The notes: generated by a model not told the origin, from the letters alone. Positions 585 to 32,350 are shown, counted from the stretch's first letter. The stretch is DNA of 64,000 nucleotides from Elsinoe ampelina (GCA_010093995.1 ML992504.1:1164322-1228321); one strand, 5' to 3'. Program-made: numbers and translations.

Positions 585-684
585 TAGTATAACAATAGCT
601 ATTATTTAACAATAGCTATTGTTAGTATTGTCGTTTTTTTATAATAGACAATAGCTATTATCTATATTGTCGTTCTTATAATAG
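585..684. repeat. Left TIR plus subterminal palindromic repeats (AACAATAGCTATTGTT type)
   Basis: Perfect 18-bp palindrome TAACAATAGCTATTGTTA at 607-624, degenerate copies at 591 and 647, and a duplicated TATTGTCGTT...TTATAATAG block. Confidence 0.75.
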
Positions 685-714
685 GTAACGCTAGATATAT
701 ATACCTTTTAGTTA

Positions 715-1790
715 CTATTTCTTCTTCTTCCTCTTAAACCTCTCTTTCTCGTCGTTCGATACCTCCTTCTATAATGCCTCCTTCTTACGCTTAACTCTAC
801 CCCGACCTAGTAGATCTAATCCCCTTTTAGCCTTATAAGATAACTCCTAGTAACTACGCTAGGCCCTTATACCTACGTTAGTATAAAGCCTATATCCGCT
901 ATATAACTCTTATATATCTTAACTTTAATAACAACTACAAAATCTAAGCCGAATATATCTATAATAACTATAGAGGTTCGGTACTTCGCTATAAAGCCTA
1001 CCGCACTTACGATACCTCTTACAACTTTATAGGTGTTTCTAATCTAATCTTTCTCTATAATCTAACGAATATTAGTATAATATCTTATAGACTAATAACA
1101 TCTTTAACCTAATTAACACATAGCGCGCTATTAATTGTCTTATTCTCGACAGAAGAGCAAATCCACTCTTACTCTTTACTATATACTATAATATTAAATA
1201 TAAGTAGGAGAAGTTAGATTATATCGACGATAGTGACAATAGTGTTTCTTCCGACAACTAATCTAATTAAGGTAGTATAGTCGAAGCGTCGGCAGGCTAA
1301 TAGCTTTAGATAGTTGTTAATAATATAGACTTACACTTTATAAAGACTTAATTACGTTACCTCTTTCCGTAAGTAACTAAAATTAACTATAATAACGGCG
1401 TATATAAGCTCTTAAAGTAGGAGTGTTTATATTACCTCTAGCTACACTAGTAGTTATATTACTACTCTAGGTAGCACTATTAGTACTAGCGGTAGAAGTA
1501 CCTCCCTCGTTATTCTCTTTACTATCGGTGTTATTCTAGAAAGTAACTTAACTATTATCGGGCTTAAACCTAGTAAGAAAGTCGGGAGTATAATAAGGTA
1601 GATATTAGTAATAGTATAGAGAGTAGCGTTAGTAATAAGTTAGCTAAGGTTGTAGGTACTATAGCGGGGGTAGTTATCGAGGTCAATAATAAGAGAAGTA
1701 GCGTAGAGATTAGTTATAGCTTTAGCCTTTACATTATAGTCGATCTATATAATTTCCTTATTAACGTTTTTATAAGCGGATCTAGCATAA
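715..1790 (-). pseudogene. RIPed Cys-rich ORF with basic C-terminus (separate gene or 3' extension of the transposase)
   Basis: De-RIP reading gives ...SCKR(C)RKCGRL...FCSC...GRGRVKR.KEAL.KEVSNDEKERF.RKKKK then a stop at 715-717; exon structure uncertain. Confidence 0.35.
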
Positions 1791-1971
1791 CTAACGTAGA
1801 TACAAATATAGTTATATTAAAGATACTAGCGAGTAAGGGAACGAGCTTCCTTAGGGTAGCTAACAAAGGAAGACTATTAGCATTAGTAGGTAGAATTATA
1901 TATAGTAATAGGGAAGGTACGCGTAGAAGTGCTTTAGAGTAGATATTAGTATAGATACTATAAGAGCGTTA

Positions 1972-4604
1972 TTACTCGGAGGCTATTAACTAGATATGCT
2001 TAGAATACTAGCCTCTAACCTTAGTAACGTTATACGGTAGATCTTTGTCCTTATTATACCTTTCTTCCTTATTAACCTCTTTATTGCTTAAACTATAAGT
2101 AGTAATATCTCTAAAGTTGTCGCTTATACTATCTATCCCGCTATTAGTATTATTATTAGCAGTAGTAAAATTGTCCGTCTTAGCCGATTAAATGTTTTAA
2201 AGATTATTTTCTACTAGCTTAGAGACTATAATTTATCGAATTGTCTACGGAAGTAGTCTATACCTTCGATTGCTAATAATATTCTTTACTATATTAAAAA
2301 CACATTTAACACCTACGCTAGTAATTAGTATTATAAGAATATTACGAGTAATATAAGCTAGTTGTAGAAATAAGTACTTATTTTCTTTCTACTAAGAAAG
2401 AATATTAAATTCTAATATTTCTTATATAGGCGAAGTTCTAAGGTAATTCTCCCCTTCTATCCTTATTATATAGATATTACTCTACCCTTACGAAAGTGTA
2501 TTATCTTAGCTAGATACTAGAGATATAAAGCTACTTTCTATATTTAACAAGGAAGGCTTCTTAAACTAGTAAGTAATAGACGAGGCTAGTAGAGGAGGTA
2601 GGAGAGTAGTTTAAGGAGGATAGTTATTATTATAGTAATCGAGGTAGTCGAGGAACTATTTATAGTAAAGTAAGATAAAATATAGTTCCTACGAAGTATA
2701 CTTATATATACTAAGTTTCTAAGTTAGATCTAAGATTATGTTGTAATTAAATAGGAAACCTTAACCTTTACTTATTTGCTTATAATACTTAGAAAGCTTA
2801 GTGTAACTAGCTTTCGCTATATTTTATATAACTAATAGCTAGTCTAAGTTGTCATTCTCTTTCTAAGTAGACTCGACTATATTAAGAAAGTCGAAAAGAG
2901 TATTATATATAAGCTATATATATTATACTAATAGCGTGTAAGACTAACTTAGCTAGTTAGTTATATCCTTAAAATTCTCTAGTATTTGAATAATAATCTT
3001 TAGATATACCTATTTAGTATAGCTAAGGTAAAGGCGTTTTATGTCTACGTAATTAATAGATACTATATTTTAATTAGCTAGCGCTTTGTTAGTTTAGGGC
3101 TTATATGTAATTATAATCTCTATATTAAGCTATTTGTCGATAATTAGTTAAAGTTTAATAGCTCGCTTATATATATTATACGTCGAGTTCTAATAGGTAT
3201 AAATGTCCTAAACGACTAAGAGTCGTTTATAAGGAGGTAGATACGCTTAAAGGGATTTAAAGTGTTAGTAGCGTTAAGGGGATTAGTTAATTATAATATA
3301 AATCGTATAGAGCTTTAAAATTAGTTAAAAAACTATAAGAAAGAACTATAAGAAATATAACTTACTTTATAGAGGGAATTCGGAACTAATAGAGTTATTT
3401 AAATATTATAGAGATGCTACTTCTTAAGCTTATTAGCTTTCTTATCGTCCTCGGTAGTTTCTAGCTATAGGGCTTAAATAATATCTTATACGACAAGATT
3501 AATTACGTAGGCTAGATATAGAATTACATTCTCGATAGAGAACTAGTATATACTCTTCTTCTTAAGACCTTGTTATACTTTAGATCGTAGAGTATTATTG
3601 TTACTTATATTGTCCGCTATAATAGTAAGAAGATATATATTAATCTTTTTTTCATTTAGAACCCTTAGTAGTTCTATACTAAGCGCAACTCTAGTATGCC
3701 GTCTACTAATTAGTATAAAATCTAGTAGGCACTTACGTACTTACTAGTTGTTATTAATATAGTATACCTTTATAGCTATAAAACTTAGATAGTTATTCGT
3801 AGACTAGCTATCTAGCACAATTAAAACTTTCGTCTAACTACTAAGATTAGTAAGAAGATTAGACTAAATGTCCTTATAGTGCTCTTTTAATAGCCCTAAG
3901 GCCCGCGTTTAACCTAGAATATTAGTATATAGCTAGAGGAAATATATAAATTAGAGAAAGGAGAAATTATTAACTGTTTAGAATAACTAATTACAATTAA
4001 TAAGGACCTTAATAAGCTCTTTTTTAAATTGTTCTAGAGAGAATTACAGTATATAGAATATAGTACTAGTAGCGTTCACTTTTAATTACGTTAGAGCTAT
4101 CTAAGCTACTAATTATTTATAGCTAGAAGATTTTATATTCTAGTAGCTTTAGTGTCTAAGATGTTTTATTAGGTGTTTATTACTAATTAAGTTCGTTATT
4201 AGGTGTTATAAAGCTCTACTATAGTAGAGATAATACATAAGAGGTATTCTATTAGCGAGCTTAGTACCTTTATTAAAGTTGGCCTAAATAACTCTACGGC
4301 AGGTTATAGAATTCTAGTTTAGTAGGTTTCGTGTTCTACTAACCCTTAATTCGCTACCTATTAATGTTATAGGCTACTATGTTTTTTAGGCTTATATAGC
4401 TAGCTATTCTTCGAGTAGTATATCTAGTTAGTAGAGTAGATAGCTAACAATTTTAATAGTTTTATAGAATCGAGTAGAGGATAGATTATCCTAGCAATTA
4501 ATACGGAACTCTTTAAGCTCGTAGGAGAGAGGTAGTAGTAGCGCAACAACTTCTAAGAGTATCTATAGTTAAGGATTAACTAAGTCTTTATTAAACACTA
4601 ACAT
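1972..4604 (-). pseudogene. hAT transposase (RIP-inactivated)
   Basis: De-RIPed motifs in order: KV.I.LD.WST.NHLSF.AI (catalytic D, ~3810); I.ADN.SNN (second D, ~3610); IPCLAHVINLVVQ (CxxH, ~3510); DI.T.WNST (~3190); ILSWWKEN..LFPQLA.IARDIL.IPI.SVGVE.VF (dimerisation domain and catalytic E, ~2220-2420). GT-AG intron 3365-3313; ATG at 4604; 3' end approximate. Confidence 0.92.
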
Positions 4605-4778
4605 TTTAAGAGTAGAGATATAGAATATTACTAGCTATATAACAAGGAGTAGAAGACTATAAGAATGCTCTATAAGAATCTATTAGCTACTCTTAATTTA
4701 TAGATTAAAAAATTTTTAATAGTATAGAACTAGAAAGCTACTAAAACTATAGTCTAATTTTCCTAACTTAAGGTTAAT

Positions 4779-6050
4779 CTATTTATTCTTATCTATGTCG
4801 TTCTTACTCTTACTCTCCTTATTATTATTATTACTCTTATCTATTGCCTTATTATTATCTTTATCTTAATTCTCTTTATTAGAATTGTTAAAGTCTCTAG
4901 TAGTAACTATCTCGCGGTATATTTTAGCTACTTCCTTAGTCTTATACTTGTTAGGTTCCTTATTAAGGAGGTTCTTAATCTTAGAGTCGTTCTCGACTTC
5001 TTCTTTAACCTTATTATTACTATACTTAACGTAGTAATTGTTAGATTTAAGTAAAATATTATTATTCTTGTACTTAAATTCTAGTTTAGAGGTAGGTTTA
5101 CATTTACTTCGATAGATTAGTATATAACTATAAGAAACAACTATAAGAAATAATATATACCTAATTATCTACCTATACTACTTAGAGTTTAGTAGGTGTT
5201 ATATTCTTAATAAACTTCTTAAACTTAGCTTAGTTACTATTGTTATAGTTACTAGTATTATATAGTAAGTTAACGCTATTATAGTAGATCTTATAGGTCT
5301 ATTTCTTAAGAATTCCGCTAGTGCCGAGAAGATGTTTTACTTAGCAATTCAAGAATATATTTATCTCGTTATAAAGCGCCTTCTTTATATAATTAGCAAG
5401 GAGTTACTTATAGTAAAGAAGAGTATTAGCTTTATAGATACTACTTTATTTTTAGTAGATAGATATAAACTTATTCTCTAACTATTCCCCTATATAGAAT
5501 TAGTAGATATACTATAAGAATATACTATAAGAAATATACTACTCTACTAGGTATAATAGTAAGTCTCCGCTATCTTCTTATATACTATATTAAAGGTAGC
5601 TTCTTTCTCTTTATTAGATATTACTTAGAATTCCTTAGAGTTCTTAAGTTTTGCCTTAAGTATACGTTTTATAGAGTAATTAGTATTACTAGTAGTAGTA
5701 AGAGCTTTCTCCTCTATACTAGCTTATATAGCGTAATCTCTTTACTAAATAGCTCGCTAGGTATTACTAAGCTATGCTTTCTACTATAGAATTCTAAGGG
5801 GGCAGCTATAGCGAGGAGTTCTAGTATTCTAAGAGTAATTTTTAATCTAGTATTTAATCTTATCGGCCTCGGAATTAAAACTCTATAGTCTAGTTAGTAT
5901 TTAACTATAAGAAGCATCTATAAGAATTACTTCTATTATAGCAAGAATTGCTTTCTCTTTCTCAGTTATTTCTTTAGTCTTAATTACTAGAGCATCGGTT
6001 ATCTCTTTCTCTTTACTAAAGGTTTACTAATCTATAGAATTAGTAGACAT
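4779..6050 (-). pseudogene. RIPed multi-exon ORF of unknown function with a long Asp/Glu-rich C-terminal tail
   Basis: ATG at 6050 (MSTNS...KEKE); three GT..CTAA..AG introns (~5930-5883, ~5540-5490, ~5160-5108); de-RIPed tail EDDDEAMDESDDDDEESESENDMDENE then a stop at 4779-4781. Confidence 0.6.
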
Positions 6051-6207
6051 TATAGATCGAGAATTAGTAGTAATTTGTAAGAGAAGGTAGAATATTAAGT
6101 ATAATAGGGAGCGAGATATAAGATATAAGTTTTATAAGAAGAAGATAAAGAGAGAAGAATTTAGTATTTCTTATATATATAGTAAATAGAGTAGCTAGAA
6201 ATACAAG

Positions 6208-6239
6208 TAACAATAGGTATTAATCCTATTGTTATACTA
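6208..6239. repeat. Right TIR with internal inverted repeat
   Basis: TAACAATAGG-N7-CCTATTGTTA inverted repeat overlapping the TIR CTATTGTTATACTA. Confidence 0.75.
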
Positions 6240-6426
6240 ATATAAAGTTATTAATATTGTTAATATAAAGTTGTTATAGTAGAGAATAATAATACGAAAT
6301 TTACATTCTATATACTATTATAAATTCCTTAATAAGGCTTAATATCTCGCTCTTAGTATTTTCGCCTTACTCTTCTTTACCTTTATAAACAAATTTTAAT
6401 AATCAATTTAATAAATTTACGTAGCT

Positions 6427-7008
6427 ATAGCTCGTAAGAAGCAAGTAATACCTCTAAAAAGAGCAAAGCTAAGGAAGTAAGGCACTAAGAAAACTACTAC
6501 TAAAAAGCCTACTATAGGTAGTTACGTAACAAAATTTAGACTAGTATTAACTAGACAAATTCGCTAGGCGAAGAGCTATAGGTTTAAGCTAGGTAGTTAG
6601 TTTCTTATAGTAAATTCTTATAGTCTTATATCTAATATAGTATAGCTATTACTCTCCGAGAGATTCGTTACTACTAGAAGATAACTAAACTTCTTATATA
6701 TAAGCTTCTCTTCTTCTACGTTATTCGCGACATTATATAAAATGTTAAGTTAACGCTTATAAGTAGAGATTTACGCTTTACGCTAGATGCTATTAAGTAT
6801 CTCTAGGAAGCGAGTAAGGTAATACTAGTAGAATATTTCGAAGGTATATTAACTATGTATTTAGAATATATAATACCTTATACTAATAACTATAGTAGAC
6901 TATAATCTTAACGCTATCTATGCTAAGCGTTGTACTATTATATAGAAAGACTCTTAGCTTACTAGGAAATATTACAATAAGTACTACCTACTTACTTTCT
7001 CTAATTAG
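6427..7008 (+). pseudogene. Histone H3-like gene (H3L), RIP-inactivated, two introns
   Basis: De-RIPed: MARKKQ...KPRKQ...HRFKPG | TVALREIR.YQK.TELLI.KLPF..V.RDI...DLRFT.DAI..LQEASE..LVEYFE | D.NLNAIHAKRCTI.QKDSQLARK; introns 6596-6645 and 6844-6898; start codon reads ATA (ATG after RIP). Confidence 0.93.
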
Positions 7009-7119
7009 TAAGACCTCTCCTCTATAATACTATAAGAATAGACTATAAGAAATAAGTAGGTGTATTTTTATATAGACTAGACTATTAAATTTCCTTTCTA
7101 TAGACTTATTATAATACTA

Positions 7120-7385
7120 AAGTATAGTATAGTAACTGTAGTCGCCTTAAAGCCTAACTAAGGCGTAGTACTATAACGTAGTATAATACTAGGATTTAAC
7201 TCTAGTGCTAATTTGGTATAGTGCTATTATAGTATAGTATAGCGCTATTATAGTACAGTGCTATTCTTGCTTAACTACGGTGTAGTGCTAGTGCTAGTAT
7301 AGCTTAGCGCAGTACTAGTACTAGTACTAATATAGTAGAGTACAGAGCTAGTACTATTTAGTTTAGCACTAGGTGCCAACCTACT
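7120..7385. repeat. Array of degenerate palindromic octamers (YAGYRCTR), ending in a possible TIR GTGCCAACCTA
   Basis: About a dozen TAGTGCTA/TAGTACTA/TAGCGCTA/CAGTGCTA/TAGCACTA units; copia coding sequence begins right after. No partner TIR found in the window. Confidence 0.55.
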
Positions 7386-9718
7386 AAGAACAGCTCTATA
7401 CTAGTACTAGAGTCGGCCTTTAGCCGCCCTAACTCCGCCCTAACGGTTATACTACTCTATTATACTAGATTAGTTACTACCTCTATTAGACTAATTAGAT
7501 AAGGCTATTCTAGATCTAAACCCGGCTTAGATCTAGGAATCTTTACTAAATAAATAGTTCTTTAATACTCTAGCCTTACTACTATCTATAGTAGTATAGC
7601 TATCTCCTCTACTAATAGGAGGAGATAAAGCTAAAGGAGATAAGATAGAAGTTTAGACTAAAGGGGTAGTTAAAGCTTAGCCTAAGTAACCCCCTTAAAG
7701 AATTACTATAAGGTTAGCTAACCTTCTTCCTAAGTATATTCTTACTATAAGAAGAATAAGAAAGCTAAGAAGATAAGTATATATTACTACTCTTATATAG
7801 CCTAATAAAGTACCTAGATATTATTAAGCTTTTAATACTTATCTATTAATGTAGCTAACTTAGTATAAGCTAGAATTAAGAGACAATCTCTCTCTACTAC
7901 TAGCTAATATTAAAGAGCTTAAGGCTTATTCTTATAAGAAGTAATTTTAAGAAGCTATAAAGGCTAAATTGCTTACTTTATACTCTAAACATATATAGAC
8001 TATTATACTAGCTACTTAAGCAAGTAGTAAGCCTATTCCTTTAATATAGGTATTTACCTATAAGGTTAATAATAAAGGAGAAGTTATAAAGTATAAAGTA
8101 AAGGTTTATATAAGAGGTAATCTATAATTAATAGAGTTAGAGACTTATATAGTAACTCTAGTAGCTAAGATCTTTAGAATGCTTATAGCTCTACTTACTT
8201 ATAAAGATATAAAGGCTATCTAGATAGATGTTATTAATGCCTATATTAATAGCTCTATTAATAAGATTATCTACTATACTATTCCTTCTAGATTTAAGTT
8301 AGTTATAGAGGAGCTTATAAAGGACTACTCTAGTATTACTCTATTAGATGTAATTCTGTTACTTAATAAGGCACTATATAGCCTAAAGTAAGTCCTAGCT
8401 CTCTAGTATACTAAATTTACTACTACTCTAAAGAGTATTAGATTTACTTAAGCCCCTAAGGCTCTATACCTCTAGATAATACTTAAAGTAATAATCTTCT
8501 TCTTTATAGATAACATTACTATTATATATCTTAAGAAGCATAAGGAGAAAGCTAATACTATTATTATAGCTCTCTATACTAAATATAAGATAAAGGTACT
8601 TAGAGATCTAAGCTAGTTTCTAGCTATCTAAGTTATAAGAGATAGACTAATAAAGAGACTCTAGCTTAGTTAAGCCTAATATATATAATAGATATATAGC
8701 AAGTTTATTATAGAGCTAACAAGGCTAGTATTAATACTACTACTAATAGAGATACTCTAGCCTTATAAGAGCTAAGTATTACTATAAGAGATCTACCTAT
8801 ATTAGTAGAAGGTTAAATCTATTAACTTTGTAGTAGTTATTACTAGGCCTAATATTACCTTTGCTACTTCTAGATTATTAAAGCATTTAACAAATCCATT
8901 ACTAACTTACTAGAGGCTAGTAAATAAAGTAATTTAGTATCTCTATAAAACTAGAGATATAGCTCTTACCTTTAATAGCTTAATACTACCTCTAATCTTC
9001 TAAGCCTTATTAGATACTAGCTTTAGTAGTTACTCTTTAAGGAAGAGCCTTTAAGGCTATCTATTTAAGATGTTCTAAGGCTTAATTAACTAGAAGGCTA
9101 CTAAGTAGCTAATAGTTATAACCTTAAGTATAGAAGCAAAATTACTTACTCTTATAGAAACTACTAAGTAAGCTATATAGTAGAGGAGGCTAATAGCCTC
9201 TATCTATCCCCTTAAGCATATTAGTATTTAGTATAACAATTAGTAAACAATTAGCCTTATTACTACTCTAATTAAGAAGCTTAATATATATCTTTATTAT
9301 ATTAATATCTATTATTACTAGCTAAGACAAGAGATTAATCTAGCTAGAGATCTATCTAGCTCTATCTTAGTAATATAGACACTATTAGTAGACACCTTAG
9401 CTAATAGATTAACTAAGTTATTACTACCTAGAAGATATAAGGCCTTCATATAATAGCTATCCCTCAAGTTAGTAGTCTACTAACTAGCTATAATAGCCTT
9501 ACAGCTATTTAGTAAAGAGGTATATTAACCAAGATATAAGCTAGAGCACTAAGAAGGACCCTAATTTAGTTTATCCCCTAGTAGAACTAAACACTTATCT
9601 ACTACTCTACTAATTTATAATTAAATTAGATAGTTATTATCTTAATCTGTTACTATTAAGGAGTTCTTTTGATTTAGCTATCTTTTAGTATACTAGGTTA
9701 AGTATTTATGTAGTTACA
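7386..9718 (+). mobile_element. Ty1/copia LTR retrotransposon, 5'-truncated and RIPed (linker + RT + RNase H + 3' LTR)
   Basis: De-RIPed: WVFTYK....GEVIKYK.KV..RG.L (~8050); Q.DVINAYINS (~8220); NKALY.LKQ.PALWY (~8365); FFF.DDI (~8500); DASF...LFKMF.G.IDWKATKQ..V.T.STEAELL (~9010-9150); HIDI..HWLRQE; ADGLTK (~9400). No gag/protease/integrase. Confidence 0.92.
9523..9718 (+). repeat. Putative 3' LTR of the copia element
   Basis: Follows a purine tract AGTAAAGAGG (PPT-like, 9511-9520); begins TATTAAC (TGTTAAC before RIP) and ends GTTACA at the AT/GC boundary. Confidence 0.55.
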
Positions 9719-9973: not shown

Positions 9974-11284
9974 ATGCCTCCGCGAAAGCGCCGGACTGCG
10001 GCCACGACTTCTTCACCACCTCCTTCACACCCTTCAACAGCTCCTTCACCTGATCCTTCCAACTCAAACCCAGCAGATGCTCTTTCCACTACCTCGGGGG
10101 ATCCAGCAGTGGATCTTCTTTCCGATCCATGGACCGACGCCGAGGAGACAGCTCTATATCGAGCATTGATCAGACACAAGCCAACAGGGTTGCACAAGCA
10201 CTTTCGTATGCTGGACATCTACCTTGGACTGCTCAGCCAAGGATATGTACGCGAGAATCCTGCAGGCTTGGGTTTAGGTCTTGAAGAGAAGGGGAGGGGC
10301 AAAGGAACCAAGGTGCTGCTTGAGACCAAGGATGGAGAGGGGGACATTGCCATGGCCGATGCGGGAGCCGGAGATGGCAATGGCGATACACAGGAGGGTA
10401 TAGAAGCCAGGGAAAGCGATGACGGCCGACACACCTCCATTCGCGGGATATGGCGCAAGCTCCACTCACTGTACGACCTCGAAGCGCTGGATGAACGAGA
10501 ACTAGAGGGCGACTACGAACGAGCCTTTGGCACCACTTCCTCAGCCGCCTCATCCTCATCTGAAGACGAGACCACCACAAATCGCCGCGCCAAAAGATCC
10601 CGTAAAGCCTCCTCGCCCTCCAACTCCCCCGCCCCAATCGGGAGAGAATTCCACCTCCCCACCTCCCCCTCTCCCTCTCACGACAGCCCCTCCTTCACCC
10701 ACCTCATCTGGGCGAAACGCTTCCCCTCCCCATCCCCCTCCCTGCCCGGCTCAGGCCCACCCAGCCCCTCCACCACCAACCCCAAACGCTCCAGCACCGC
10801 CCGCCCCAAACTCGAACGCCGAGACAGCAGCCCTGCGCAAATGCCCGAACTTCTCCCCAGCCGACACGAACCCCCAATCAAGTTCCAGCCGAGCTTCACC
10901 ATCCCGTCCGACGGCGAGGGCGACGAAGGCGGGACACCAGTGCGCACGACGGAGAAAGAGAAGACGACGAAACGAGGCAGGGGCCGGCCGAGTAAGTCCT
11001 CTTTACCCGCGGCGGTTGCGCAGGGGAAGGGGAGGGAGAGTAATATCACGCGAAGGAGTAGTCGGGTGGCGACGAATACGAACGAGAGCGAAGAGGAGGA
11101 GGAAGGGGAGGAAGAAGGGAGCGGTGAGGAGGAGGGAGGGGAGGATGAGGATGAGGAAGAGGAGAGTAGTAGTGAGGAGGAGGAGGAGGAGCAGGATAGT
11201 CCGCAGAAAAAGACGAGGGGAGGAGGAAGGGGGCGAGGGCGGGGAAGAGGTGGTGGAAGGAGAGGAGGCAGGGGGAAGAAGTGA
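9974..11284 (+). CDS. EAF7: NuA4/TINTIN subunit Eaf7 (CT20 family)
   Basis: WTDAEETALYRALIRHKPTGLHKHFRMLDI and IWRKLHSLYDLEALDERE motifs; acidic/RGG tail. Confidence 0.85.
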   Translation: MPPRKRRTAATTSSPPPSHPSTAPSPDPSNSNPADALSTTSGDPAVDLLSDPWTDAEETALYRALIRHKPTGLHKHFRMLDIYLGLLSQGYVRENPAGLGLGLEEKGRGKGTKVLLETKDGEGDIAMADAGAGDGNGDTQEGIEARESDDGRHTSIRGIWRKLHSLYDLEALDERELEGDYERAFGTTSSAASSSSEDETTTNRRAKRSRKASSPSNSPAPIGREFHLPTSPSPSHDSPSFTHLIWAKRFPSPSPSLPGSGPPSPSTTNPKRSSTARPKLERRDSSPAQMPELLPSRHEPPIKFQPSFTIPSDGEGDEGGTPVRTTEKEKTTKRGRGRPSKSSLPAAVAQGKGRESNITRRSSRVATNTNESEEEEEGEEEGSGEEEGGEDEDEEEESSSEEEEEEQDSPQKKTRGGGRGRGRGRGGGRRGGRGKK

Positions 11285-30976: not shown

Positions 30977-32350
30977 TCAGCCTTTCTCTGACTTGACCTC
31001 GACGTCAGTCGGTGGTGTCTCCTCCTTCTTGACCTCACTGTCCGATACAGAACTAATACTGAGGTTGCTGGACCTTTTGGACACGGTTCGTGCTGGTGCT
31101 GCCAGCTCTGATCCTCGTGCGCCATCAGGGGTCGAAGGCCTCGAAGAATCACTAGGTATCCGCGGCGAAGGACGTCCGTCTACACCTGAAAGTGCACCAG
31201 GAGCCTTCTTCCGCCTAGCCGTACTTTGACTGCTCGTCCGACGAGTGACCTCAGATCCCCTGCGATTTCGTCCTTCTGGTTCGGGAGTAGGCGTCGAACT
31301 ACGAGAGCTCGATCGAGAGTTACCGTCTGATAGAAGACCATCCTTGCGCTTCTCCCTTCTGATCTGAGTGCTACTCGGCTTTTCGCGGACGACCTTGGCT
31401 TTTTGATCTTGGACGACTCGCGATTTTCCAACTAGATTCTGCCAGCCCCTCCAGCCTGTCCACCAGAGTAGGCCTCCCTCCTTCTTGGCAATCTCCCTGT
31501 CTCTGATCTTGATCATCTTCCTTAAGCCTGACCTTCGCTCGTTCTCCTTCTCCCAGTACGAAGTCCTGTACGTGTCCCACTCTTCGCGGAAGTCCGGGCT
31601 GAAAGGCTTGGGCAGCAATAGCAGTTTGATCGTGTCTCCCCCTGATGCAACGTCTTCTTCGATCCAGAGGTCGTTTTTGAGTCCTTCCAGCCGTTGAAGC
31701 TTCTGCTTGTCCCCTGGCGTACGCTCAATGTCGCGCGGCAGATACTCATACCGCATACCTTTCGTCCCTGCCCAGTACCCGAAAGGTCCCAGTAGGCCAA
31801 GATATCCGACTACCTCTTTCCACCATGATCCTCGTATTACCACAACTTTTAGATTGAATCCTCGAAGGCCCCTATTGGTGATACCAACCCAGCGCCTTGG
31901 CCATCTCACACCTCGATCCCAAAGTCCTGTTCCCCATACTAGCCCCCAAGTGACCATACCTCCGACAAAGCCCATCTTTTCCATGACATCCACCACCCAG
32001 TAGACACTTCCGCCAGTCCCTTGGCCATCTTCGCGGGGTCGTAGAAAGAGCAAATACGTAAAGGTCAAGGTCCAGACTAGTAGAGCCCCCAGCAAGAGAA
32101 TGTGCAGTCGCAAGCGAGCGCGTAGGGAGAGGTACTGGGCGCGCAATGATGACTCAAGGATTAGAAGGTTGAGGTATATTTGAGGAGGTGATGACGGAAG
32201 GTGCGACACTGGATCAAGGGGAGGAGGCTGGGGAGCTGTCACTGATGTTTGAGAGGTCGATGACTTTCGCGCAGCTGTCGCAACTTGTTCGGGAGATACA
32301 TTTGGTGGAGGAGCCCCTTTGACGATGCGGTCGAGAGTGTTGGACGACAT
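30977..32350 (-). CDS. SPO7: Nem1-Spo7 phosphatase regulatory subunit
   Basis: SSPPQIYLNLLILESSLRAQY, two TM segments, NRGLRGFN, FREEWDTYRTSYWEKENERR. Confidence 0.9.
   Translation of the reverse strand: MSSNTLDRIVKGAPPPNVSPEQVATAARKSSTSQTSVTAPQPPPLDPVSHLPSSPPQIYLNLLILESSLRAQYLSLRARLRLHILLLGALLVWTLTFTYLLFLRPREDGQGTGGSVYWVVDVMEKMGFVGGMVTWGLVWGTGLWDRGVRWPRRWVGITNRGLRGFNLKVVVIRGSWWKEVVGYLGLLGPFGYWAGTKGMRYEYLPRDIERTPGDKQKLQRLEGLKNDLWIEEDVASGGDTIKLLLLPKPFSPDFREEWDTYRTSYWEKENERRSGLRKMIKIRDREIAKKEGGLLWWTGWRGWQNLVGKSRVVQDQKAKVVREKPSSTQIRREKRKDGLLSDGNSRSSSRSSTPTPEPEGRNRRGSEVTRRTSSQSTARRKKAPGALSGVDGRPSPRIPSDSSRPSTPDGARGSELAAPARTVSKRSSNLSISSVSDSEVKKEETPPTDVEVKSEKG

Follow-up and report, generated by a model that had tools for sequence, protein, structure and literature searches.

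A probable RIP-inactivated copy of a three-gene hAT transposon with a histone H3-like gene in an Elsinoe-like fungus

The first part of the 64,000-nt stretch of DNA analysed here (the window) is a block of AT-rich sequence that holds the remains of three genes. A histone H3-like gene, H3L (6427..7008, plus strand), stands divergent from an open reading frame (ORF) that we call the central ORF (4779..6050, minus strand), and this is followed on its own strand by a hAT transposase gene (1990..4604, bounds approximate, minus strand). We read the segment at ~1.5-7.5 kb as very probably one copy, disabled through repeat-induced point mutation (RIP), of an autonomous three-gene hAT transposon that belongs to a family described in Pyrenophora tritici-repentis (Ptr), and we are highly confident of the identity and anatomy of the element.

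The AT-rich block extends from base 1 to ~9700 and has a GC content of 22-35%, against ~54% in the adjoining DNA. Dinucleotide indices bear the mark of RIP in all eight segments of the block, with TpA/ApT at 1.36-2.64 (0.56 in the GC-rich part) and (CpA+TpG)/(ApC+GpT) at 0.18-0.31 (1.27 in the GC-rich part), in agreement with a preliminary description of this DNA, which had reported a similar degree of RIP in all the genes. A flanking Spo7-like gene (30977-32350) shares 89% identity with Elsinoe fawcettii, 86% with Sphaceloma murrayae and 84% with Elsinoe australis, which places the host among Elsinoe-like Dothideomycetes (order Myriangiales).

H3L can be read as three exons (6427-6595, 6646-6843 and 6899-7008) separated by two introns of 50 nt (6596-6645) and 55 nt (6844-6898), both with GT..AG borders. 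Its ~156-158 codons include seven in-frame stops, and the start codon is now ATA. Exon 2 matched the Pfam family Histone (PF00125) with an E value of 5e-4 and 20.8 bits, for a curated cut-off of 26.4 bits, and matched solved H3 chains at E 4e-7. All three stops in this exon align to Q of H3, which is the expected product of RIP acting on CAA and CAG to give TAA and TAG. A word-indexed protein search with the damaged H3L returned 26 candidates, none of which scored, because RIP destroys shared words. Compared with canonical H3, the tail of the predicted protein is longer, a loop carries an insertion, and the C terminus is that of the element family described below. The gene had been recognized in the preliminary description as RIP-destroyed but readable, and as lying head-to-head with its neighbour; both statements hold, the neighbour on the minus strand being the central ORF.

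The central ORF comprises four exons (6050-5931, 5882-5540, 5489-5161 and ~5106-4779) and has 25 stops in 371 codons. Its acidic tail now reads as K/N-rich, RIP having converted D and E codons to N and K. We used the read-through of 6050-4782 on the minus strand, with stops as X, as a HMMER query against 1.84 billion representative sequences and obtained two matches, the better of which (E 5.6e-6) came from Pyrenophora seminiperda: a hypothetical protein, 356 residues long, whose tail is strongly acidic. The family of this protein had 14 members at E <=0.001 among 4,692 candidates, including several Ptr proteins and proteins from P. teres, Bipolaris sorokiniana, Alternaria panax and Stemphylium. 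The family is multi-copy in Ptr: a cluster at 90% identity has 29 members, among them PTRG_04982, PTRG_03509, PTRG_11534 and PTRG_08246, which come from several separate loci of isolate Pt-1C-BFP, and one Ptr central-ORF sequence occurs on 43 contigs. In a 586-residue Ptr protein (P0135), the N-terminal part of the central ORF is joined to a transposase C terminus with the hAT dimerization domain PF05699. Such a chimera of central ORF and transposase is what Manning et al. (2013, PMC3538342) describe for the short, 2.3-kb form of the Ptr element, and the family found here is therefore that of their central ORF.

A profile of this family matched the window in three colinear blocks: positions 38-151 at 5882-5538 (E 2e-11), positions 152-256 at 5487-5173 in another frame (E 3.6e-5) and positions 265-335 at 5096-4884 (E 5e-5), all in a search space of six sequences. 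Matches by tblastn were colinear as well. The profile breaks at short introns, which identifies a single four-exon gene. A 'Cys-rich' ORF and an 'acidic' ORF, previously taken for two genes, are thus exons of one, and the proposed four-gene organization reduces to three: transposase, central ORF and H3L.

The central-ORF protein resembles no family or fold in the collections that we searched. Pfam gave scattered sub-threshold matches only. An AlphaFold model is all-helical, with a mean pLDDT (predicted local distance difference test) of 69; residues 77-185 form a confidently modelled core, and the acidic tail is disordered. Foldseek searches of the PDB with this model had a best E value of 3.9, and a wide structural search with VIA-align reached a best Z of 6.2, to generic coiled coils only; a TASOR-Periphilin chain was among these coiled coils and is not credited as a relative. 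A protein atlas search (score 0.76, TM <0.3) added nothing, and a likeness of one conserved stretch to histone H4, seen by eye, was unsupported by any search. Several database entries (Ptr proteins P0139, P0140, P0143 and P0150) name the protein 'DNA-pol-phi domain containing protein'; no Pfam match to this domain was found in the family members scanned, and the label probably reflects the acidic tail.

A scan of metagenome contigs with the family alignment yielded nine further central-ORF loci (L001-L009), 1.2-6.5 kb long and with a GC content of 37-49%. In five of the nine (L001, L002, L004, L005 and L007), the central ORF is followed by a transposase gene on its own strand; the remaining four contigs stop before that point. 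Upstream and on the opposite strand, Pfam detected a histone fold in five of the seven loci scanned (L001, L004, L005, L006 and L009; E 7e-30 to 7e-11), the remaining two being L008, in which the histone fold is cut by the contig end, and L007, which has only 606 nt upstream. The pairing of H3L with this hAT family therefore recurs beyond the window. All three genes are visible in three long loci (L001, L004 and L005), and gene order is identical in every locus long enough to show it. Translated comparisons of the window with these three gave 19, 24 and 16 high-scoring segment pairs (HSPs), with summed E values of 1e-61, 1e-76 and 5e-57, respectively, and the main chains run colinearly through H3L (6648-6999), the central ORF (4932-5771) and the transposase (4043-2218).

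The transposase gene was delimited with the help of these relatives. Comparison with the relatives' termini placed its start codon (ATG) at 4604-4602 and its likely stop codon at 1992-1990; one intron lies at ~3365-3316 and a probable second at ~2700-2641, both approximate. The three pieces read contain 68 stops in 834 codons. Despite this damage, the hAT C-terminal dimerization domain (Dimer_Tnp_hAT, PF05699) was recovered at ~2221..2457 on the minus strand with E 1e-7 and 32.1 bits, over a cut-off of 21.4 bits. The domain matched those of L001, L004 and L005 at 60.6-63.8 bits (the domain of L004 itself scores E 5.8e-19 in Pfam), and the colinear tblastx matches to the same loci, from 4043 to 2218, had a top HSP of 157 bits in the core region. 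The hAT transposase named in the preliminary description is thus confirmed by domain and by homology to intact relatives. Pfam reported neither an RNase-H-like core nor a BED-type zinc finger in the transposase, the intact copy included. A C..C..H..H pattern was seen by eye in the L004 transposase, and the corresponding positions in the window read Y.

The relatives also show what an intact H3L looks like. L009 appears to be an assembled transcript, 99.7-100% identical to L001 without seven short segments. Six of these begin with GT and end with AG on the strand of their own gene and, by our reading, the seventh, of 77 nt, does not. They include introns of H3L, which is on the minus strand of L001, and of the central ORF, on its plus strand; from this it follows that the introns are spliced in a living relative, that H3L and the central ORF are both transcribed there, and that their divergent transcripts overlap at the 5' ends. 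A missing 60-nt segment removes coding sequence in frame; together with the 77-nt segment, which also removes coding sequence, it could reflect alternative splicing or a variant copy. The stretch of the relatives equivalent to 6051..6426, the divergent intergenic region of the window as defined by position, holds 5' untranslated region (UTR) introns and these overlapping transcripts. From its position, the window region presumably holds the promoters of both the central ORF and H3L.

The H3L of L009 has, like that of the window, a histone fold of the H3 type. It aligns to H3.3/H3.6 over residues 1-135 (E 7e-51), keeps the contexts of K4, K9/K14 and K27, and carries a 5-residue insertion after the K27 region and a different C terminus; with H3.3/H3.6 as the comparison, the N-terminal tail insertion and the C terminus set the element's H3L apart from canonical H3. 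By tblastx, window positions 6648-6999 matched the H3L of L001, L004 and L005. The tails diverge greatly between lineages, and the C terminus, N[ILM]NAI..TI.KD..L..YY.K[YF], is common to the family, window copy included. The second intron of the coding sequence has an identical place in the window and in L001. The first is found in the window (6596-6645), in L004 (~717-764), in L005 (~720-770) and in L006/L008, and is absent from L001, which suggests intron gain or loss inside the transposon. The common C terminus and intron positions mark the window H3L as part of an element-borne lineage and not a fresh capture of a host gene. The H3L frame is open in L001/L009, L004 and L005, and L006 has RIP-type stops. 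L006 and L008 (GC 37% and 49%) share the same H3L and central-ORF layout, and in both, stops in H3L take the place of Q in other copies; both loci probably stem from a further genome and have been affected by RIP.

Nearly every intron of the element contains a short repeated motif. In the window this takes the form TTCTTATAG-N4-TTCTTATAG, read in the sense of the gene that holds it, with a period of 13 nt between the two 9-mers. Searched as CTATAAGAA-N4-CTATAAGAA, the pair occurs seven times in the window, always with a 4-nt spacer, and not once in 100 shuffles of the 64 kb. Three copies lie in the central-ORF introns (minus strand; 5905..5926 in intron 1, 5930-5883; 5512..5533 in intron 2, 5539-5490; and 5128..5149 in intron 3, 5160-5107) and a fourth in H3L intron 1 (plus strand; 6602..6623), a position at which L004 and L005 have a pair as well. 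On the minus strand, a fifth copy is in a transposase intron (3333..3354), the equivalent intron of L001 having its pair at 4402-4421, and a sixth precedes the transposase ATG (4657..4678) in a probable 5'UTR intron with unclear splice sites, similar to pairs at 3098 in L004 and 3106 in L001. All six are found in units that look like introns, are in gene sense, and follow the 5' splice site directly, ahead of an ACTAAC or ACTAAT branch site and an AG. The seventh pair (7030..7051, minus strand) is different, being 3' of the H3L stop and antisense to H3L. A transition-tolerant search of the 64-kb window added no further pair, so that all of them lie inside the element as we delimit it.

In the intact relatives, the motif reads TTATCACAG-N4-TTATCACAG, with 8-14 pairs per locus, and its 7-nt core occurs 20-23 times per locus, against ~1 in shuffles. 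The window form is the CpA-to-TpA RIP product of TTCTCACAG, which is one base off the form of the relatives; a reading of the motif as a GATA site was ruled out, as the window version lacks GATA. Every long locus also has a pair or cluster outside the genes, located ~220-460 nt inwards of each end and in antisense orientation to the gene that faces outward. A pair in the same place and orientation as that at 7030-7051 is present in L001 (479-545), L004 (277), L005 (262) and L007 (308), and homology to the element therefore continues past H3L in the window. The motif may represent transposase-binding sites, may mediate pairing at the RNA level between 3' antisense copies and intron copies, or may have an introner-like origin. 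Introner-like elements of Dothideomycetes are described as near-identical introns multiplied into unrelated host genes (Collemare 2015, PMC4457414). The element resembles them, as so described, in having many look-alike introns whose presence varies between relatives (H3L intron 1), and differs in that these introns, of 43-64 nt, are all in one transposon and have as their common part a 9-mer pair that is also found outside genes.

The ends of the element are best seen in the relatives. L005 starts and finishes with the same inverted sequence, and L001, L002 and L004 have TAGGCTGGTAAATGGGTT-type inverted termini. Over 5,992 nt, L001 and L002 share 99.9% identity, and they cease to be related directly past the inverted terminus; they are two insertions, which fixes the end of the element at that point. 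The intact loci measure 5.9-6.3 kb, and in L001, L004 and L005, H3L, the central ORF and the transposase are all located between the ends. The eight bases that flank each end of L001, read by eye, do not match each other. Inward of the termini are arrays of G-rich units, 15-43 of them in the terminal 400 nt and hardly any elsewhere in the relatives; the two ends carry them on opposite strands. These inverted sub-terminal arrays are telomere-like (GGGTTA, GGGTTG and GGGGTA) and occupy 100-384 and 6087-6351 in L001, 1-270 and 5990-6095 in L004, and 1-190 and 5740-5902 in L005.

In the window, a transition-tolerant search for inverted repeats found nothing above shuffles, and a RIP-tolerant search for the relatives' terminus gave matches at chance frequency; an alignment reduced to purines and pyrimidines was too permissive to be of use. 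With no ends found in the window, H3L is placed inside the element on the evidence of the relatives and of the motif pair at 7030-7051. Remnants of the arrays nevertheless point to where the ends should be. On the H3L side, a probable sub-terminal region (7100..7521) contains CCC runs at 7427, 7438 and 7521, of which those at 7427 and 7438 are CCCTAA units, in the polarity seen in the relatives, in which the end of the element is ~220-460 nt beyond the motif pair. By analogy, the end on this side is probably at ~7.3-7.55 kb. On the transposase side, six of the 15 GGG runs in the AT-rich block fall in a probable sub-terminal region at 1560..1911, on the plus strand and again in the relatives' polarity, and the corresponding end is probably at ~1.45-1.6 kb. 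From the motif pair, the CCC runs and the GGG runs together, we infer ends near 1.5 and 7.5 kb.

To assess selection, Nei-Gojobori counts were made on in-frame tblastx HSPs between L001, L004, L005, L006 and L007. The proportion of non-synonymous differences (pN) was below that of synonymous differences (pS) in 21 of 21 gene comparisons between diverged copies. Values were 0.24-0.34 (pN) and 0.63-0.82 (pS) for H3L in five pairwise comparisons, 0.35-0.45 and 0.68-0.79 for the central ORF, and 0.28-0.31 and 0.68-0.79 for the transposase. Synonymous divergence (dS) was saturated in 11 comparisons, and the other 10 had dN/dS ratios of 0.11-0.33. In a frame control with nine gene pairs, pN/pS was 0.33-0.56 in frame and rose to 0.94-1.49 when the sequences were read one or two positions off. 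Judged from these counts, all three genes are under purifying selection between diverged intact lineages, and H3L is constrained about as much as the transposase. Intact H3L copies do not evolve neutrally, an outcome that the preliminary description had left to be checked: pN is well below pS in all five comparisons.

The closest published counterpart is the Ptr element of Manning et al. (2013, PMC3538342), the precedent to which the preliminary description had already pointed and which the homologous companion ORF now strengthens. That element is described as ~5.6 kb long, with a transposase, a central ORF whose function is not known and an H3L between terminal inverted repeats (TIRs), in 10 long and 16 short copies and with expressed sequence tags for H3L; heterologous expression is reported to have been tried, so far with no success. 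As far as the published description goes, it shares with the window a homologous central ORF next to the transposase and an H3-like gene in the same element, and the sizes are comparable (~5.6 kb in Ptr, 5.9-6.3 kb for the intact loci and an estimated ~6 kb for the window copy). The Ptr copies are reported to be nearly identical and expressed, whereas that of the window is RIP-destroyed, and Ptr belongs to the Pleosporales, unlike the Elsinoe-like host of the window (Myriangiales). The likeness rests on central-ORF protein homology and the published description, not on the DNA of the Ptr element or on its H3L.

A second set of elements has been reported from six Mycosphaerellaceae, in which hAT elements of ~9.5 kb with intronless H3 copies occur in hundreds of copies, all killed by RIP (Dhillon 2019, PMC6710886). 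These have in common with the window a hAT element with H3-like sequence, AT-rich blocks and CpA-to-TpA RIP. According to the available description, they carry one or two retrocopy-like H3 copies and no detectable dimerization domain, and no other feature is reported there. The window copy has instead one H3L with two introns, a dimerization domain, a companion gene and an estimated length of ~6 kb. On the published description of the Mycosphaerellaceae elements, the element of the window is set apart from that type, to which it may be distantly related, and is of the Ptr type.

Members of the hAT superfamily, such as Ac, hobo and Tam3, have a C-terminal dimerization domain, short inverted termini and clusters of sub-terminal repeats. 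The present family conforms to this plan: the window has the dimerization domain, and the relatives have inverted sub-terminal clusters and short inverted termini that begin with TAG. It departs from it in its two conserved accessory genes, in the telomere-like character of the G-rich arrays and in the motif pairs in nearly every intron.

Whether H3L and the central ORF do anything for the element is a separate question from its anatomy, and here we lean, by a modest degree, towards their being functional parts of it, on the strength of the sequence comparisons above. The element would be moved by ordinary hAT cut-and-paste, with all three genes between its ends, the central ORF and then the transposase on the minus strand and H3L divergent from the central ORF. 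H3L and the central ORF would be kept because they serve the element itself. Our preferred guess is that the H3 variant is handled by the acidic helical protein, and that this variant changes the chromatin of the element itself or its silencing; the first part of this guess draws on the protein's acidic tail, on its constant place next to H3L and on the joint conservation of the two genes.

The most serious competitor treats H3L, possibly together with the central ORF, as passive cargo with no role for the element, a host H3 gene having been captured once by a hAT element through transduplication. We regard this as possible but doubtful. It is the view taken in the literature as published, Manning et al. 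(2013, PMC3538342) having framed their case as transduplication with H3L genes that 'may have undergone drift', and Dhillon (2019, PMC6710886) having called the Ptr case recent and independent. It is also in keeping with the great differences between H3L tails of different lineages, and a function is not shown by any experiment. A passenger that had no role should, however, have decayed over this divergence, and H3L is open in L001/L009, L004 and L005 despite saturated synonymous sites. Its pN is close to that of the transposase, and the excess of pS over pN is lost out of frame, which argues against passive cargo, as do the family C terminus, the two conserved intron positions (both present in the window) and the constant gene order. 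The earlier suggestion of a chromatin-modifying system rather than passive cargo is accordingly supported in one half, in that constraint favours a kept function, and not in the other, as the partner has no recognizable family or fold.

Several points weigh against our own reading of a three-gene transposon with functional accessory genes. The ends of the window copy were not found, TIR searches being at chance, and the Pfam histone score of the window H3L is under the curated cut-off. In the selection estimate, HSPs favour conserved stretches, saturated synonymous sites make the ratios rough, and the loci compared are metagenome contigs without known host taxa. The central ORF is without a known family or fold, so any role assigned to it is a guess.

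A different anatomy had been put forward in the preliminary description, in which a 5.65-kb TIR-bounded hAT unit (585-6239) contains the transposase and two further ORFs and leaves H3L outside. Its basis is real, in that an exact 14-nt inverted match joins 585..598 (plus strand) to 6226-6239 and palindromes of the AACAATAG type are found near both arms. Yet the same 10 kb contain 207 inverted pairs of at least 13 nt and, roughly estimated, the 1e7 to 5e7 position pairs in the AT-rich block should yield an exact 14-mer ~0.3-1.5 times. The match does not stand above shuffles, the eight bases flanking it at 585 and 6226 show no target-site duplication, and we judge it to be a chance match. The 1.4 kb at 585-1990 have no Pfam match and no counterpart in the relatives beyond low-complexity matches and a faint one of 1938-1991 to the region just past the L004 transposase stop (E 0.23). 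Since both extra ORFs belong to a single gene, since H3L lies within the ends of the relatives, and since a conserved end-proximal motif pair is found past H3L at 7030-7051, this anatomy is very improbable. As for the palindromes, AACAATAG / CTATTGTT clusters occur at 585-700 and 6205-6245, around both arms of the 14-mer, and the left cluster falls outside the element as delimited here.

That an Elsinoe-like lineage captured H3 independently, with a convergent likeness to the Ptr element, would accord with the separate events in Pleosporales and Mycosphaerellaceae inferred by Dhillon (2019, PMC6710886) but is highly unlikely, since convergence would not yield the central ORF, gene order and orientation, two H3L introns, C-terminal signature and intron motif that the window has in common with the intact family.

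Elements of this kind (Manning et al. 2013, PMC3538342) and RIP-destroyed hAT copies with H3-like sequence in their hundreds (Dhillon 2019, PMC6710886) are already on record in those published accounts, and the locus itself is unremarkable: an AT-rich block that holds a dead transposon of a type already published. New relative to this literature are the host order, the three-gene unit common to deeply diverged lineages, the purifying selection on all three genes, and the motif pair of introns and ends. Our literature search found no report tying Elsinoe to such an element and none of later work on the Ptr H3L.

The wider point is that a transposase, an H3 variant and a partner without a family travel together and are conserved between copies with saturated synonymous sites. 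To our knowledge, transposon-encoded histones are very rare. If the element does need its H3 variant, it offers a tractable case of a mobile element that brings its own chromatin protein, and the intact relatives provide testable constructs. The motif pair is a second concrete puzzle, for which we found no explanation. A more ambitious and tentative proposal, which we consider less probable than not by some way, is that this is no recent, accidental capture but an old three-gene lineage spread across Dothideomycete orders, in which the H3 variant and its acidic partner would form a chromatin module that the transposon needs, for instance in packaging or marking its own DNA or in blunting host silencing, and in which the 9-mer pairs would act as a shared control element that ties splicing, or the fate of transcripts, to the ends.

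Beyond the H3L side of the element, the remainder of the AT-rich block (7451-9700) is heavily RIPed; translated by eye, it resembles a copia-type reverse transcriptase, and Pfam searches of it with E values up to 1 gave no match. The nearest intact gene beside the block (9974-11284) encodes an Eaf7 domain (Pfam E 2e-17), that of a chromatin-modification-related NuA4 subunit, and its position next to the element is probably a coincidence.

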